Below, one piece after another: positions 28,851 to 33,418 of a DNA stretch of 64,000 bases (positions are counted from its first letter, which is position 1; each line of letters opens with the position of its first letter). Both the position numbers and the translations under genes were made by a program. Below the pieces are notes generated by a model. The model was not told where the DNA came from. It saw only the letters and a list, made by a program, of their open reading frames with translations, and ran no database searches. Source of the DNA: Candidatus Omnitrophota bacterium (GTDB lineage Bacteria > Omnitrophota > Gorgyraeia > 2-01-FULL-45-10); assembly GCA_028699255.1 (NCBI GenBank), contig JAQVUX010000007.1, positions 24,670 to 88,669 of the forward strand, in the 5' to 3' direction.

Positions 28851-29258
28851 TTAAAATTTCACTATCATGGCCCGCGGCGGGCATGCCCTTACACACAATT
28901 CACACGCTATGCACTTGTCACTGTCGAATATCACTTTCATGGTCTTCTGGTCGATATGCAGCGCTCCCGTAGGGCAAACGGATATACATGCCCCGCAATG
29001 CGTGCATCGCGATTCATCTCTGGTTACGTCCTGACTAAGCGGCTGTATCTTTAAGCCAAGACTTGTCAGGTATTTAATTCCTTCGGCGTAATTTTCTTTT
29101 TTACCTTTAAGCTCTAATACCATGAGCCCCTCTTCTGCCGGAGTTATTTTAGCCTGCAGAATATTGAACACGAGGTCGAAATCTTTTACCAGTTTATACA
29201 CAATCGGCTGGTCCAGTAATTTATGCGGAAACTTCAAAACTATTCTCTTCGATACCAT
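28851..29258 (-). CDS. NIL-domain ferredoxin (NIL + 2x[4Fe-4S])
   Basis: 135 aa; 'FNILQA' NIL motif; 'CTHCGACISVCP' and 'CIACELCVRACP'. Confidence 0.75.
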   Translation of the reverse strand: MVSKRIVLKFPHKLLDQPIVYKLVKDFDLVFNILQAKITPAEEGLMVLELKGKKENYAEGIKYLTSLGLKIQPLSQDVTRDESRCTHCGACISVCPTGALHIDQKTMKVIFDSDKCIACELCVRACPPRAMIVKF

Positions 29259-29277
29259 AACATCCTCCTTTTAAGCG

Positions 29278-30012
29278 TTACACGAACTTGATGTCTCCCC
29301 AGCTTCCCATCTTTTCGCCCATTATTATGAGCACACCCTTTACACCTTCGATCGATTTCGCGAGCGCTATCGCGTCCTCTATATCGTAGATGCTTTTCAC
29401 CGCATTACCTGCGGCGGTAGCCGCGGCGTCGGATAGCGCGGCGTCCTCCGATATTATGAGCGCGGCATCGGCGTTGCCCAGACTTAAAGAGTGACTCACC
29501 GTTCCACTCGAGGTACAAACCCCCAGACCTTTATCCGAAGGATCGATCTCTATGGCGAGGGTTCCTGTAAAAGGCGATTTCTCTCCGGCATATATGCCCA
29601 TGACCCGCTTCCGGGATGTTTTAAGAAAAATATCGCCGCCGTTTTCTACGATAACCTGATCTGAAAATGCCAAAAGATCGCGGCCAACAAATTCGGCGAC
29701 GGCTCCGGCGACAGCGGCCATCGGCCCTACACCGGCCTTACCCGCAGACTCCGACATCGCGCGTATGATGCGCGGCGCATCGTCTCCTGCAATCATGGGC
29801 GAGAGTGCCGTATAAAACTCCGGCACTTTTTTAATATACCGCTCGATCTCGGCCCTGTGAGTTAAAATCGATTCCCGCGCCTGATTCTCTAAATTCCTGG
29901 ACGCCAGTATGCAAAGGTCGGTCTGGGCCTCTTTGACCTCGAAAGAAATTAAATCCCCGGATTCGATCCAACGCCTGTATGAACGCTCTTTGAACATATT
30001 CCTCTTTAACAA
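29278..30012 (-). CDS. UPF0280/COG2122-like (ApbE-superfamily) protein
   Basis: 244 aa; 'GVGPMAAVAGAVAEF' conserved block. Call is from memory of the family; 7-nt overlap with hypE. Confidence 0.4.
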   Translation of the reverse strand: MLKRNMFKERSYRRWIESGDLISFEVKEAQTDLCILASRNLENQARESILTHRAEIERYIKKVPEFYTALSPMIAGDDAPRIIRAMSESAGKAGVGPMAAVAGAVAEFVGRDLLAFSDQVIVENGGDIFLKTSRKRVMGIYAGEKSPFTGTLAIEIDPSDKGLGVCTSSGTVSHSLSLGNADAALIISEDAALSDAAATAAGNAVKSIYDIEDAIALAKSIEGVKGVLIIMGEKMGSWGDIKFV

Positions 30013-31014: not shown

Positions 31015-32094
31015 TCACCTTCCAGCGTACTTATAATACGCCGCGCAAGTTCCTTCACTCGAAACCATGCAGGCTCCGACAGGATGTTCCGGATCACAAA
31101 GTTTGCCGAAGAGCTTGCATTCCGGCGGAGCCTTAACGCCTTTTATGACATCCCCGCAGATACACGCCCTGTTTTCTTTTGGCTTCGATATCTTCGGAAT
31201 GAATTTTTTATCCGTATCGAAATCCGAAAACTCTTTCCGTATTTTAAGCCCGCTCTTTTTTATAGCGCCTATGCCGCGCCACACCGAGGGATATTCTTCA
31301 AAGACCTTCTTCATGCTTTCCCGGGCGAGCGCGTTGCCATTTTTATTCATCATCCGCGTATATTGTATCTCGACCTTCGGCGTACGCTGTTTCACAAGCA
31401 TAAGTATCGCCTGCAAAATATCGAGCGGCTCAAAACCCGCCACAACGCACCGCTTATTCCGCCGCGGCAGGAATAAGTATGGCGTTATTCCTATTATAAC
31501 GCTGACATGCCCGGGGAGCAAGAATCCGTCGATATTGAGCCGGGGGTCTTCCGTCAGCGTCTTCAACGCCTCCGGCATCGTCTTATGTCCGCATAACACG
31601 GAGAAATTCTTAACCTTGTTCTTTCTGGCCGCAATAATGGACTGCGCTACCGTAGGCGCGGTCGTCTCGAAACCAACCCCAAGAAAAACGATCTCTTTGC
31701 CGGGGTTTTTCTTCGCGAGATCGAGCGCGTCGATACCGGAATACACCATCCGCACGTCCGCGCCGCGCGCCCTCTCCTTCTCAAGCGAGGAATAAGAGCC
31801 CGGCACCTTGAGCATATCGCCGAATGTTGTAATTATCATGTTTTTCCGGGCGGATAATGCTATCGCCTTATCGATAAATTCGTTCGGCGTAACACACACC
31901 GGGCATCCGGGGCCCGAGATCAGGTTTATATTGTCAGGCAACAGATCTTTCAGTCCGAAGCGGAATATGGAAACGGTATGCGTGCCGCAAACTTCCATAA
32001 AATTATACTGCCTGTTCACCTCCACTGACCTGCGTATCTCGGAGGCGACCTTATCTATAAGCTTTTTATTCCTGAATTCGTCAATGTATTTCAT
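31015..32094 (-). CDS. hypD: hydrogenase maturation protein HypD
   Basis: 359 aa; 'CGTHT', 'GPGCPVC' and C-terminal 'CxxC' HypD motifs. Confidence 0.85.
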   Translation of the reverse strand: MKYIDEFRNKKLIDKVASEIRRSVEVNRQYNFMEVCGTHTVSIFRFGLKDLLPDNINLISGPGCPVCVTPNEFIDKAIALSARKNMIITTFGDMLKVPGSYSSLEKERARGADVRMVYSGIDALDLAKKNPGKEIVFLGVGFETTAPTVAQSIIAARKNKVKNFSVLCGHKTMPEALKTLTEDPRLNIDGFLLPGHVSVIIGITPYLFLPRRNKRCVVAGFEPLDILQAILMLVKQRTPKVEIQYTRMMNKNGNALARESMKKVFEEYPSVWRGIGAIKKSGLKIRKEFSDFDTDKKFIPKISKPKENRACICGDVIKGVKAPPECKLFGKLCDPEHPVGACMVSSEGTCAAYYKYAGR

Positions 32095-32303
32095 ATTTTT
32101 AGATTTTTCAATGCCTTGAGGGTTTTGCGCGCCTCGGCCTCTTTCAATTTCTCGATCGCGAACCCCGCGTGCATGAGGATGTAGTCACCGACTTTTGCGG
32201 TCTTCATAAGGGTAAAGTTCGCCCGCTTCTTCAGCCCGCCCGCCTGAACGATGCCTTCATCCCCGTCGATCTTTACAACCTTCATCGGTATCCCTAAACA
32301 CAT
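32091..32303 (-). CDS. hypC: hydrogenase maturation chaperone HypC
   Basis: 70 aa beginning 'MCLGIP'. Confidence 0.85.
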   Translation of the reverse strand: MCLGIPMKVVKIDGDEGIVQAGGLKKRANFTLMKTAKVGDYILMHAGFAIEKLKEAEARKTLKALKNLKI

Positions 32304-33418
32304 ATCGGCCTCTCGTTCGCGATGGCAATCTGCCCGAGCGGTATGCCGGAATCGTCGGTCGATACCTGCGAATTCACATACACCTTAAGGCCTGCAGAGC
32401 TTAAAAGACCGGAGGCTCTCGCCGTAAGGTACTTATTCCGGAATACGCCGCCGCTCAAAACCACCCGGCCCGTTTTAAGCTTACGGCTTAATTTTAAAGA
32501 TACTTTAGTTACAATATCCGCCATAGCATTATGAAATTTACACGCGATCACAGCTTTACCTTTTTTTCCTTTTCTGTTTTTCCGTAGGTCCTTTATAACC
32601 CCTTTTATTACCGGCGCGGTGCCTATTATAAGCATCCCGCCTTTATCCTTAATATCAAACTCATAACTTCCGGAACTTTGGCCGGATACAAGCCGTTCCA
32701 ATTCTACCGGGAGTTGCGCATCTTTCGTGATAACATCCTTCTCCAGTATAATATTCCCTACGGCATCAAACAATCTGCCTGCGCTGGATGTAAACGGCGA
32801 GTTTATGCCTTTATCAATCATCGTCTTCAATACAGCCAGCTCATCCCGCCGCCACCTTCGCGCTGAAACAGGCAGGCGGTTACCAAATGCATGATACATA
32901 TAACTTACTGCCATGCGCCATGGCTGTCTTATCGCCTTTTCTCCTCCCGGCATCGGTATATATTCAAAATGCGCGGCCCTCGTAAAACCTTTCAGGCTTC
33001 CGACAAAAAATTCACCGCCCCAAATATTACCGTCGGAGCCATAACCGGTGCCGTCGAACGCCACGCCGACGACATCACCTTTAATATCGTTATCGGCGAT
33101 CGCGGAAGCGATATGGGCCTCGTGATGCTGTACGGGATATAGAGCCCCGGATTCAGAATAGTTCTCCGCAAACCGGTTCGAAAAATAACCGGGATGCAGG
33201 TCATGCGCGATAATCTGAGGCTTTATCCCAAGCTCTTTTTGGCATTTTTTAACAGCGTCTTCGTATCTTGTAAAATTATCCGGATTCGCCATGTCGCCAA
33301 AACCTTCGGCGAGAAAAGCCTCGCGGCCTCTTGCAAACGCAAACGCGCCCTTCATATCCGCCCCGCATGACAGGATCGGCCTTTTAATTTTGAATGGAAG
33401 AGATATCCGTCGGATCAT
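32294..33418 (-). CDS. hypF: HypF-like carbamoyltransferase, Kae1-like C-terminal domain only (N-terminal acylphosphatase/Zn-finger/YrdC domains absent)
   Basis: 374 aa; 'VQHHEAHIASA' and 'GVAFDGTGYGSDGNIWGGEF' match the HypF Kae1-like domain; upstream neighbour is pdaD, not further hypF sequence. Confidence 0.65.
   Translation of the reverse strand: MIRRISLPFKIKRPILSCGADMKGAFAFARGREAFLAEGFGDMANPDNFTRYEDAVKKCQKELGIKPQIIAHDLHPGYFSNRFAENYSESGALYPVQHHEAHIASAIADNDIKGDVVGVAFDGTGYGSDGNIWGGEFFVGSLKGFTRAAHFEYIPMPGGEKAIRQPWRMAVSYMYHAFGNRLPVSARRWRRDELAVLKTMIDKGINSPFTSSAGRLFDAVGNIILEKDVITKDAQLPVELERLVSGQSSGSYEFDIKDKGGMLIIGTAPVIKGVIKDLRKNRKGKKGKAVIACKFHNAMADIVTKVSLKLSRKLKTGRVVLSGGVFRNKYLTARASGLLSSAGLKVYVNSQVSTDDSGIPLGQIAIANERPICV

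Follow-up and report, generated by a model that had tools for sequence, protein, structure and literature searches.

The hypF'-hypC-hypD-hypE genes analysed here form a genuine [NiFe]-hydrogenase maturation operon of Candidatus Omnitrophota, in which HypF is shortened to its Kae1-like domain; this short HypF is the lineage-wide form of the phylum and not a local oddity. The operon serves, as its client, an Mbh/Mrp-type group 4 [NiFe]-hydrogenase whose genes lie in the same window (the whole 64-kb stretch of DNA that was analysed). As a whole, the data are best explained, with a probability that we put at roughly 0.6, by a short-HypF maturation operon serving this hydrogenase, with COG2122 and NIL-ferredoxin genes that would retain their usual role and be co-expressed with the hydrogenase.

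Profile searches gave strong family matches for all six genes located on the minus strand at 28851-33418:

32294..33418, minus strand: hypF', 374 aa, the Kae1-like carbamoyltransferase domain of HypF standing alone
32091..32303, minus strand: hypC, 70 aa, N-terminal Met-Cys; Pfam HupF_HypC 89 bits, TIGR00074 83 bits (above cut-off)
31015..32094, minus strand: hypD, 359 aa; Pfam HypD 489 bits, TIGR00075 461 bits (above cut-off)
30006..31007, minus strand: hypE, 333 aa from ATG 31007; TIGR02124 434 bits (above cut-off)
29278..29997, minus strand: UPF0280/COG2122 (ApbE-superfamily) protein, 239 aa; NF003323, PDB 2O34, PF27030
28851..29258, minus strand: NIL-domain 2x[4Fe-4S] ferredoxin, 135 aa; Pfam NIL 57 bits plus Fer4/Fer4_7

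The hypC reading frame shares 10 nt with hypF' and 4 nt with hypD. Translation of hypE starts at ATG 31007 and not at GTG 31097: the TIGR02124 alignment begins at residue 33 of the longer ORF, and homologues of 333-335 aa fit the shorter product, the C-terminus of which, read directly, is ...LPRIC. An earlier, sequence-only reading had assigned the ORF at 29278-30012 to COG2122/UPF0280, and domain annotation bears this out (NCBIfam NF003323, 290 bits against a cut-off of 271; PDB 2O34, E=8e-36; precomputed Pfam PF27030 AbpE_bact; NCBI name 'UPF0280 family protein'). The 7-nt overlap with hypE reported there rests on a TTG start and has to be abandoned: all 120 closest homologues measure 239-263 aa, nearly all 239-240 aa, and ATG 29997, with AAGAGG in front, yields a protein of 239 aa and an 8-nt spacer. 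The ferredoxin carries a NIL domain, as had been proposed, and two 4Fe-4S motifs, and hypA, hypB and DUF39/COG1900 are indeed all absent from the 64-kb window.

The Kae1-only composition of HypF, already recognized from the sequence, was confirmed. Pfam detects HypF_C (96 bits) and HypF_C_2 (237 bits) only, Pfam and profile searches of the 374-aa product give no match to acylphosphatase, zf-HYPF or YrdC, and the protein covers positions 382-740 of the 741-position TIGR00143 hypF profile (245 bits, below the 466-bit cut-off). The upstream neighbour is pdaD, as stated earlier; it ends only 44 nt from hypF', so no missing HypF domains are hidden there. Compared with the four-domain HypF of E. coli and Caldanaerobacter subterraneus (3VTH/3VTI), hypF' lacks the acylphosphatase, twin zinc-finger and YrdC-like domains (~390 residues) and aligns with residues 393-747 of the solved 761-aa protein 3VTH. 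Its Kae1-like domain is 35% identical to that of the larger enzymes and conserves the HHxAH/D/D metal site and the ASKHA nucleotide motifs (HHxAH, DGTGYGxDG and D356 in the alignment to 3VTH). An AF2 model (pLDDT 93.7) superposes on the Kae1 domain of the HypE-HypF complex 3VTI with a TM of 0.92 and an rmsd of 1.8 A. Judged from alignment and model, the hypF' product is a complete stand-alone carbamoyltransferase domain with its metal/nucleotide site intact.

The protein matches an Omnitrophica MAG protein at 100%, and its 120 closest homologues (313-407 aa) all contain Kae1-like domain families only. Among 80 species-level genome loci, HypF measures 357-409 aa in 25/25 Omnitrophota-type loci with a complete gene and 724-906 aa in other phyla; the short forms make up one clade in an NJ tree drawn without support values. 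This phylum-wide, single-clade distribution had no place in the sequence-only reading. The His of the HIGDL motif, 94% conserved in full-length HypF, is replaced by Gly in 75% of short forms, hypF' among them, which suggests that a constraint between domains was lost long ago.

A one-domain HypF is already known, and the Omnitrophota form is the same kind of truncation. HypF1 of Cupriavidus necator (Ralstonia eutropha) H16 likewise consists of the C-terminal Kae1-like domain only, its gene shares a hyp operon with hypC, hypD and hypE, and the protein 'likely requires carbamoyl adenylate' from an external source (PMC9100943); the minimal HypF of the earlier reading thus has a precedent, and the carbamoyl-adenylate question is already in print. 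However, C. necator is an aerobe with HypX that also has a full-length HypF2, whereas in the anaerobic Omnitrophota every hyp-linked HypF is of the short form, the client is a group 4 membrane-bound enzyme, and COG2122-NIL-ferredoxin genes follow. The short HypF would carbamoylate the C-terminal Cys of HypE (...PRIC), drawing on carbamoyl-adenylate or an equivalent donor produced in trans. HypE would then dehydrate the carbamoyl adduct to thiocyanate, and HypCD would build Fe(CN)2CO for the hydrogenase large subunit. Such a supply in trans would parallel the passage of TC-AMP from TsaC to TsaD: in the t6A system, TsaC/Sua5 is a YrdC-fold maker of an acyl-adenylate and TsaD/Kae1 its separate Kae1-fold user, which may serve as a working model, although that system works with threonylcarbamoyl-AMP as substrate and tRNA as acceptor.

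It seems improbable that the short HypF depends on a separate N-terminal module (acylphosphatase/Zn-finger/YrdC) or on a second, full-length HypF encoded elsewhere that would produce the carbamoyl-adenylate, as HypF2 of C. necator is able to do. Split YrdC/Kae1 systems such as TsaC/TsaD do exist, C. necator has both forms of HypF and its HypF1 seems inactive anaerobically in E. coli (PMC9100943), and the sequence covered here is part of the genome (64 kb of a 126.6-kb contig and ~7.5 kb beyond the left edge of the window). Nevertheless, when seven N-terminal HypF halves were compared by tblastn with 542 kb of Omnitrophota-type DNA surrounding hyp clusters, no match reached E<=1e-3, and no dedicated YrdC partner was found in the window or in these 542 kb. 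The fixation of the short form across the whole phylum and the HIGDL substitution also argue against a helper. The Sua5/YrdC-phosphatase fusion at 38851-39948, earlier put forward as a candidate source, is very unlikely to feed the short HypF. It is the sole YrdC-fold protein in the window and weakly matches the YrdC section of the hypF profile (31 bits), but it scores as the L-threonylcarbamoyladenylate synthase TsaC (TIGR00057, 181 bits against a cut-off of 123), belongs to an ordinary housekeeping cluster, sua5-rpiB-glyA, with pur genes coming after it, and is unlinked to hyp genes in every other locus; nothing singles it out.

The hydrogenase operon, absent from the sequence-only reading, was identified by Pfam/NCBIfam matches and Ni-Fe motifs. 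It lies 11.6 kb beyond the hyp/COG2122/NIL-ferredoxin genes, on the same strand:

4804..17238, minus strand: Mbh/Mrp-type group 4 [NiFe]-hydrogenase operon, comprising the next nine entries
16189-17238 and 15378-16196, minus strand: sulfhydrogenase beta/gamma-like subunits
14855-15376, minus strand: ferredoxin
13920-14912, minus strand: NuoH-like subunit
13487-13918, minus strand: small subunit
13018-13485, minus strand: NuoC-like subunit
11828-13087, minus strand: large subunit, with RICGICSSSH and DPCYCCTER
6691-11824, minus strand: Mrp/Mbh membrane subunits
5291-5911, minus strand: second ferredoxin
4804-5304, minus strand: HycI-like protease
17288..28800, minus strand: intervening block of glycosyltransferases, sugar enzymes, pilin, GspF and GspE (Pfam)

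The two large-subunit motifs contain all four Ni-Fe cysteine ligands. The operon resembles those of P. furiosus Mbh and of the 'group 4g' enzymes of Omnitrophota and Cloacimonadota in its NuoB/C/D/H/I-like core with Ni-Fe cysteine motifs, its Mrp antiporter-like subunits and its HycI-type protease, and the enzyme is placed at the level of group 4; unlike them, its first genes encode subunits resembling sulfhydrogenase beta/gamma (AsrA/AsrB). Mrp-linked group 4g hydrogenases have been reported in Omnitrophota (PMC8542988, PMC10066038). The intervening block, which in this genome stands between the NIL-ferredoxin gene and the hydrogenase operon, is missing at the same position in L008, L012, L013, L016, L018-L021, L091 and L093; in relatives the hydrogenase operon begins 57-580 bp after the NIL-ferredoxin gene. 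GC content is 0.40-0.45 at 18-26 kb against ~0.49 elsewhere in the window, and this low-GC pilus/glycosylation block may have split an ancestral supercluster.

Most Omnitrophota species have the arrangement hypF'CDE-(hypA)-COG2122-NIL-ferredoxin, directly followed by the hydrogenase structural genes, which leaves two sulfur-assimilation genes in an unusual position between maturation and hydrogenase genes. This placement across the phylum had also gone unmentioned. The pair comes after hypE or hypA in 19 Omnitrophota-type loci, and the two genes are adjacent in 19/21, the contigs of L010 and L092 ending before the NIL-ferredoxin position. The association with hyp/mbh genes was seen in one phylum only, so shared descent inflates the locus count; outside Omnitrophota, none of 76 loci has a hyp or mbh gene beside COG2122. 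There the arrangement is DUF39-NIL-ferredoxin-COG2122 (DUF39 upstream in 28/35 loci, the ferredoxin gene as upstream neighbour of COG2122 in 41/55), which agrees with the earlier attribution of the pair to sulfide-dependent homocysteine synthesis. In that pathway (M. acetivorans MA1821/MA1822/MA1715; D. vulgaris Miyazaki DvMF_0044 and partners) the same two families have DUF39 (COG1900), metF, aspartate kinase, iscS or cysE as neighbours, whereas the Omnitrophota pair adjoins hypE and [NiFe]-hydrogenase genes, with COG2122 preceding the ferredoxin. At the sequence level, the Omnitrophota genes are orthologues of the pair in these homocysteine operons, indistinguishable at conserved positions. 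COG2122 is 46-58% identical to copies from DUF39 operons and shares every family-invariant residue with them, with no group-specific substitutions in the alignment; it therefore probably performs the same chemistry. The earlier reading had offered a choice between sulfur or ligand chemistry borrowed for hydrogenase maturation and methionine genes co-transcribed with hyp genes; on this point the unchanged sequence favours unchanged chemistry.

This conservation argues against the view that the pair has become an accessory of [NiFe]-cofactor biogenesis in Omnitrophota, with the ferredoxin giving HypD the electrons to transfer cyanide or form CO, COG2122 handling sulfur on HypE/HypD, or the pair offsetting the missing N-terminal HypF domains. 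We regard this view as unlikely, despite the tight coupling to hypE (spacers of 3-8 nt in L003, L008, L009, L010, L012, L018, L088 and this window), the true hypA lying between hypE and COG2122 in L020 and L042, the co-occurrence of the pair with short HypF and its absence from ~55 hyp loci with full-length HypF, and the absence of any DUF39 from those 542 kb of Omnitrophota-type sequence. In L087 the hydrogenase structural genes come immediately after the pair and hyp genes are missing, five short-HypF loci (L001, L007, L014, L015, L044) lack it after hypE, C. necator HypF1 lacks such partners, and we found no literature link of UPF0280 to hydrogenases. The unchanged COG2122 would also suit the absence of any functional link, the MesB-like gene described below, COG2122 and NIL-ferredoxin being ordinary methionine/homocysteine genes that an ancestral rearrangement placed next to hyp and vertical inheritance left in place, with DUF39 elsewhere as in Desulfovibrio. 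This alternative is also unlikely but has several points in its favour: the hyp genes are flanked by two methionine-related families, the association occurs in a single phylum, the locus tags of the three genes are widely separated in D. vulgaris (PMC5764234), and the MesB-like gene is retained without hyp genes in L089. However, the order persists down to 38-46% HypF identity despite changing flanks, the pair parted from hyp in L087 still adjoins hydrogenase genes, and in 21/21 Omnitrophota-type loci its order is inverted and DUF39 gone from the neighbourhood. In the preferred reading, that of a pair in its usual role beside the hydrogenase, COG2122 and the ferredoxin would continue to provide sulfide/persulfide handling and low-potential electron transfer, and their co-expression with the hydrogenase would reflect a possible exchange of electrons between it and the ferredoxin, the input module of the enzyme being sulfhydrogenase beta/gamma-like.

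The conserved upstream neighbour of the hyp operon probably lies outside the hydrogenase system:

34926..35924, minus strand: MesB-like core methionine synthase homologue, 332 aa; no Pfam match, weak PRK00957

It had been described as MetE-like and 5 kb away. A core (MesB-type) methionine-synthase-like identity stands; the distance holds from COG2122, but the gene is only 1.5 kb upstream of hypF'. Like MesB of Dehalococcoides mccartyi, the protein has ~330 aa, a MetE-like barrel and Ser/Asp/His-x-Cys/Asp/Cys at matching positions, although it falls far below the cut-off of curated methionine-synthase models. Its invariant residues S13, D180, H220, C222, D241 and C306 match the MesB Zn/homocysteine pattern (PMC7857596), and MetE structures are the best PDB matches of its AF2 model (pLDDT 89.7).

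Six closely packed genes on the minus strand (28851–33418) make up the hyp region of the window; their families were assigned by Pfam and NCBIfam profile searches.

32294–33418, minus strand: hypF', 374 aa, its Pfam matches limited to HypF_C and HypF_C_2, which together make up the Kae1-like domain
32091–32303, minus strand: hypC (HupF_HypC, 89 bits), N-terminus Met-Cys (Cys2)
31015–32094, minus strand: hypD (HypD, 489 bits)
30006–31007, minus strand: hypE (TIGR02124, 434 bits), C-terminus ...LPRIC
29278–29997, minus strand: UPF0280/COG2122 gene (NF003323, 290 bits against a cut-off of 271)
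28851–29258, minus strand: NIL-Fd gene, a NIL-domain 2x[4Fe-4S] ferredoxin

HypE matches the profile of its PurM-like-fold family and bears the canonical C-terminal PR(I/V)C acceptor cysteine; its gene starts with the ATG at 31007. An overlap of 7 nt between hypE and the COG2122 gene had been reported from the sequence alone. The most likely start of the latter is the ATG at 29997, behind AAGAGG, which replaces the overlap by an 8-nt spacer and predicts a protein of 239 aa, a length typical of the closest homologues. A promoter and terminator scan found terminators at chance level between 17 and 36.7 kb, the sole strong one lying after the pilin gene at 25.3 kb. At 35193–35221 on the minus strand, within the MesB-like gene and pointing to speB-pdaD-hypF', is a perfect match to the sigma-70 consensus (TTGACA, 17 nt, TATAAT); it may be a chance occurrence.

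The sequence-only reading recognized the hyp genes correctly and did not mention the hydrogenase operon that lies on the same strand of the window. The large subunit was located by a scan for the two CxxC Ni–Fe ligand motifs, the full operon by profile searches.

4804–17238, minus strand: full Mbh/Mrp-type group 4 [NiFe]-hydrogenase operon; the first two genes encode sulfhydrogenase beta/gamma (AsrA/AsrB)-like subunits, and the operon also encodes ferredoxin-like, NuoH-, NuoB-, NuoC- and NuoD-like subunits, Mrp/Mbh membrane subunits and a HycI-type maturation protease
11828–13087, within that operon: large subunit, with RICGICSSSH and DPCYCCTER
17288–28800, minus strand: intervening block of glycosyltransferase, split transketolase, methyltransferase, epimerase, pilin, GspF and GspE genes

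The group 4 assignment relies on matches to Complex1_49kDa/NiFeSe_Hases, Oxidored_q6, NADHdh, Mrp/Mbh subunits and HycI. Genome surveys have reported Mrp-linked group 4g [NiFe]-hydrogenases in Omnitrophota (PMC8542988, PMC10066038), and together with these reports the presence of a client enzyme in the window gives the hyp genes an obvious job. The hypF'CDE operon is a real one, with its client hydrogenase in the same window. The sulfhydrogenase-like first two subunits suggest that this enzyme may be linked to sulfur or NAD(P)H. In the window, NIL-Fd is parted from the structural operon by the 11.6-kb glycosylation and type IV pilus block (GC 0.40–0.45 over 18–26 kb), unlike in most relatives, where the two are adjacent. 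Two unknown ORFs of 480 and 563 aa also lie in this block.

The claim that the HypF of this operon consists of the Kae1-like domain alone was borne out. Besides its two Pfam matches, HypF' aligns with positions 382–740 of the 741-position TIGR00143 profile (245 bits, under the cut-off of 466). It has no match to the acylphosphatase domain (PF00708), the twin zinc-finger motifs (zf-HYPF) or the YrdC-like, carbamoyl-adenylate-forming domain (PF01300), and tblastn found no homologue of the zinc-finger motifs nearby. The gap between the end of pdaD and hypF' is only 44 nt, which leaves no room for concealed N-terminal HypF domains on that side. The transferase site is intact: H98, H99, H102, D122, D129 and D356, among others, are conserved with full-length HypFs, and the His/His/Asp/Asp metal site of the Kae1-like domain is present. 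As modelled by AlphaFold (pLDDT 93.7), HypF' fits the Kae1 domain of HypF in the HypE–HypF complex 3VTI with a TM score of 0.92 and 1.8 Å. Residue comparison revealed a sole clear group-specific change, at the His of the ‘HIGDL’ motif (HypF' residue 39, 3VTH His426), which is 94% conserved in full-length HypFs and is Gly in 75% of the Omnitrophota short HypFs.

The one-domain form is phylum-wide in Omnitrophota. HypF' itself is 100% identical to a Candidatus Omnitrophica MAG protein. The best 120 homologues of HypF' are 313–407 aa long and all contain the families of the Kae1-like domain alone; about 45–50 of the best 150 cluster representatives from 1.84 billion proteins are 354–430 aa. In a survey of hypF limited to one genome per species (80 loci; loci of other genomes or metagenomes carry L numbers), HypF measures 357–409 aa in all Omnitrophota-type loci whose gene is complete and 724–906 aa in other phyla, with L054/L059/L062, L023 and L032 as exceptions. 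The Omnitrophota short forms fall into one clade in a neighbour-joining tree of Kae1 domains computed without support values. In L032, hypF is partly truncated (448 aa) and only the end of the YrdC domain is left. A second Kae1-only clade of 374–399 aa, apparently an independent truncation, is encoded directly downstream of typA/bipA in unclassified or ‘Chlamydiae’ MAGs (L054, L059, L062) and is followed by hypC-hypD, the contig of L059 stopping inside hypC. A ‘delta proteobacterium’ MAG (L023:3766–6735) encodes a 990-aa protein with an N-terminal Kae1-only HypF and about 620 unrelated residues that show a weak Ig-like match.

HypF' resembles HypF1 of C. necator, which likewise has the Kae1-like domain only and whose gene shares an operon with hypC, hypD and hypE (PMC9100943). 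The architecture is consequently not new and was already known, from one organism; as far as could be found, no one has described it as fixed throughout an anaerobic phylum. The published analyses of Omnitrophota genomes treat the hydrogenases and not the maturation genes (PMC8542988, PMC10066038). How cyanide ligands arise without the adenylate-forming half has been a question since the description of C. necator HypF1, and a phylum apparently relying on the short HypF, with the client hydrogenase adjacent, offers a cleaner system in which to address it. Phylum-wide fixation beside a client enzyme gives indirect support to the view that the short protein may sustain maturation without a full-length HypF.

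By analogy with TsaC and TsaD, HypF' would need carbamoyl-adenylate made in trans. The missing half might instead be a separate N-terminal HypF module encoded out of sight. A tblastn search that used the first 385 residues of seven full-length HypFs as queries gave no match in 542 kb of Omnitrophota-type sequence surrounding hyp clusters, so no split hypF partner is encoded near these clusters. As for donors in trans, the sequence-only reading had proposed the YrdC-phosphatase fusion at 38851–39948 as a partner of HypF'. This proposal was not upheld: the fusion scores above the cut-off for L-threonylcarbamoyladenylate synthase, lies in a housekeeping cluster (sua5-rpiB-glyA, then pur genes) and shows no hyp linkage in the other loci compared, so that its fold class is the sole argument for it. 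It is best read as a housekeeping TsaC. The region 37137–39948 (minus strand), with a TsaC/Sua5-type domain fused to a low-molecular-weight phosphatase and then rpiB and glyA, resembles the sua5-ywlE-rpiB-glyA order of Bacillus. In one Omnitrophota sub-clade an ORF of 554 aa is inserted between hypC and hypD (L003:11339–13003; also L014 and L018). It was rejected as a replacement module for HypF, having a signal peptide, no Cys motifs and no Pfam match, and being absent from most loci.

The gene downstream of hypE had been assigned to COG2122 over 29278–30012, and this identification stands: besides the NF003323 score, the protein matches PDB 2O34 (DVU1097) with E=8e-36, and the NCBI name of an identical protein agrees. 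In NIL-Fd, the NIL domain spans residues 5–71 and the Fer4 motifs residues 79–100 and about 108–131. When the proteins of the window were mapped onto all loci, a recurrent Omnitrophota order emerged: MesB-like - (speB - pdaD) - hypF' - hypC - hypD - hypE - (hypA) - COG2122 - NIL-Fd - sulfhydrogenase-beta-like - gamma-like - Fd - NuoH - small subunit - NuoC - large subunit - Mrp. The hypE–COG2122 spacer is 3–8 nt in many of these loci, and the first structural gene follows NIL-Fd after 57–580 bp in L008, L012, L013, L016, L018–L021, L091 and L093. A true hypA (PF01155) lies between hypE and COG2122 in L020 and L042.

Absence of hypA and hypB from the window, and of the usual COG1900 partner of the COG2122–NIL-Fd pair (DUF39, PF01837), had also been noted from the sequence and was confirmed. 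Motif and profile scans detected none of the three genes in the 64 kb or in about 7.5 kb past the left edge, and no DUF39 homologue was found in any Omnitrophota-type locus. The motif scan for hypA, hypB and the large subunit, run over the window and all loci, did bring up the [NiFe]-hydrogenase large subunit and the hypA of L020 and L042. One KO list in supplementary file 6 of Seymour et al. 2023 includes hypA, hypC, hypD, hypE and hypF (K04651, 53, 54, 55, 56) without hypB (K04652), so hypB may be commonly absent in Omnitrophota. The terms COG1900, COG2122 and PF01837 do not occur in the supplementary tables of that study.

A metagenome scan with the COG2122 alignment returned 80 loci. Four are Omnitrophota-type and repeat the hypE-COG2122-NIL-Fd order; the COG2122 proteins of the other 76 are 46–58% identical. 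NIL-Fd is directly upstream of COG2122 in 41 of the 55 non-Omnitrophota loci with enough upstream sequence, a DUF39/HcyBio gene (about 500 bits) precedes NIL-Fd in 28 of 35, and none of the 76 contains a hyp or mbh gene. The homocysteine operons thus read DUF39-NIL-Fd-COG2122, whereas the window reads hypE-COG2122-NIL-Fd. Within these samples, the pair is detached from DUF39, inverted and placed between maturation and structural genes in Omnitrophota only. A literature search found no link between UPF0280/COG2122 and hydrogenase.

The context outside Omnitrophota matches the published genetics: in D. vulgaris, homocysteine synthesis depends on DUF39, the NIL/ferredoxin protein and COG2122, and M. 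acetivorans requires MA1715 to assimilate sulfide efficiently (PMC5764234). COG2122 also adjoins DUF39, metF and aspartate kinase in L154, and iscS, an Rrf2 regulator, cysE and mnmA in L099 and L127. Such neighbours fit a sulfur-assimilation role, and the gene context points to a general role of COG2122 in sulfur trafficking. Hydrogenase-linked COG2122 proteins form a crown clade and a deep trio near DUF39-linked sequences in a neighbour-joining tree without support values. Column-by-column comparison revealed no residues separating them from other members: all 41 positions that are invariant in the family, its one conserved Cys among them, are common to hydrogenase-linked and DUF39-linked proteins. 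The group-specific residue analysis showed no sign of neofunctionalization in the hydrogenase-linked proteins.

Because their sequences are unchanged, COG2122 and NIL-Fd would keep their usual chemistry, and electron sharing between the ferredoxin and the hydrogenase would be the reason for expressing the pair together with this enzyme. One rival is that the pair acts directly in hydrogenase maturation. The 3–8-nt spacing to hypE is set here beside the five short-HypF loci in which the pair is missing after hypE (L001, L007, L014, L015, L044), and beside an Omnitrophota genome (L087:10001–20720) in which COG2122-NIL-Fd directly precedes the structural operon and hyp genes are missing from the surroundings. 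Another rival is pure inherited synteny with the hyp and hydrogenase genes, DUF39 being encoded elsewhere; on this account the shared invariant residues would be expected.

To a bolder reading we give about one chance in five. The pair would be a new accessory module with which strict anaerobes that have a Kae1-only HypF build or run their [NiFe]-hydrogenase; it might supply low-potential electrons and/or sulfur to HypCDE (to transfer cyanide, to form CO or to reach HypE thiocyanate by another route), or the group 4 enzyme might have the ferredoxin as its dedicated redox partner. Electron delivery by the ferredoxin to HypD or to the hydrogenase, if it occurs, would bear on two gaps in anaerobic [NiFe] maturation: where the electrons come from and how the CO ligand arises. 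COG2122 and NIL-Fd are genetically required for sulfide-dependent homocysteine synthesis, and their placement with a hydrogenase provides a second, independent context for their roles.

The MetE-like gene of the neighbourhood had been described as a short methionine synthase. Its ligand pattern and fold support this description; its score does not, since the protein has no Pfam match and reaches 25.7 bits against PRK00957 (cut-off 258), a weak methionine-synthase match. Invariant S13, D180, H220, C222, D241 and C306 correspond to MesB positions 15, 177, 214, 216, 235 and 311, reproducing the zinc ligands (His-x-Cys, Asp, Cys) and the homocysteine-binding Ser/Asp of MesB (PMC7857596). In a fold search, the model (pLDDT 89.7) has MetE structures as its best matches, and PGAP names several orthologues ‘methionine synthase’. 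Ligand residues, predicted fold and orthologue names thus point to a core methionine synthase. The gene lies directly upstream of hypF' in deep Omnitrophota lineages. In L089 the M48-MesB-like-speB-pdaD block is present without hyp genes, and we therefore treat the MesB-like gene as a neighbour and not as a component.

Between this gene and hypF' lie polyamine genes for a pyruvoyl arginine decarboxylase and an agmatinase (33463–34929). At a second polyamine site (49472–52134, plus strand), saccharopine-dehydrogenase-like and Orn/DAP/Arg-decarboxylase-family genes are possibly a carboxynorspermidine pair. A PD-(D/E)XK endonuclease gene (52423–52860) and a C-5 cytosine DNA methylase gene adjoining an unknown ORF of 323 aa (59423–61515) lie where GC falls to about 0.44, and may belong to a restriction-modification or mobile segment.
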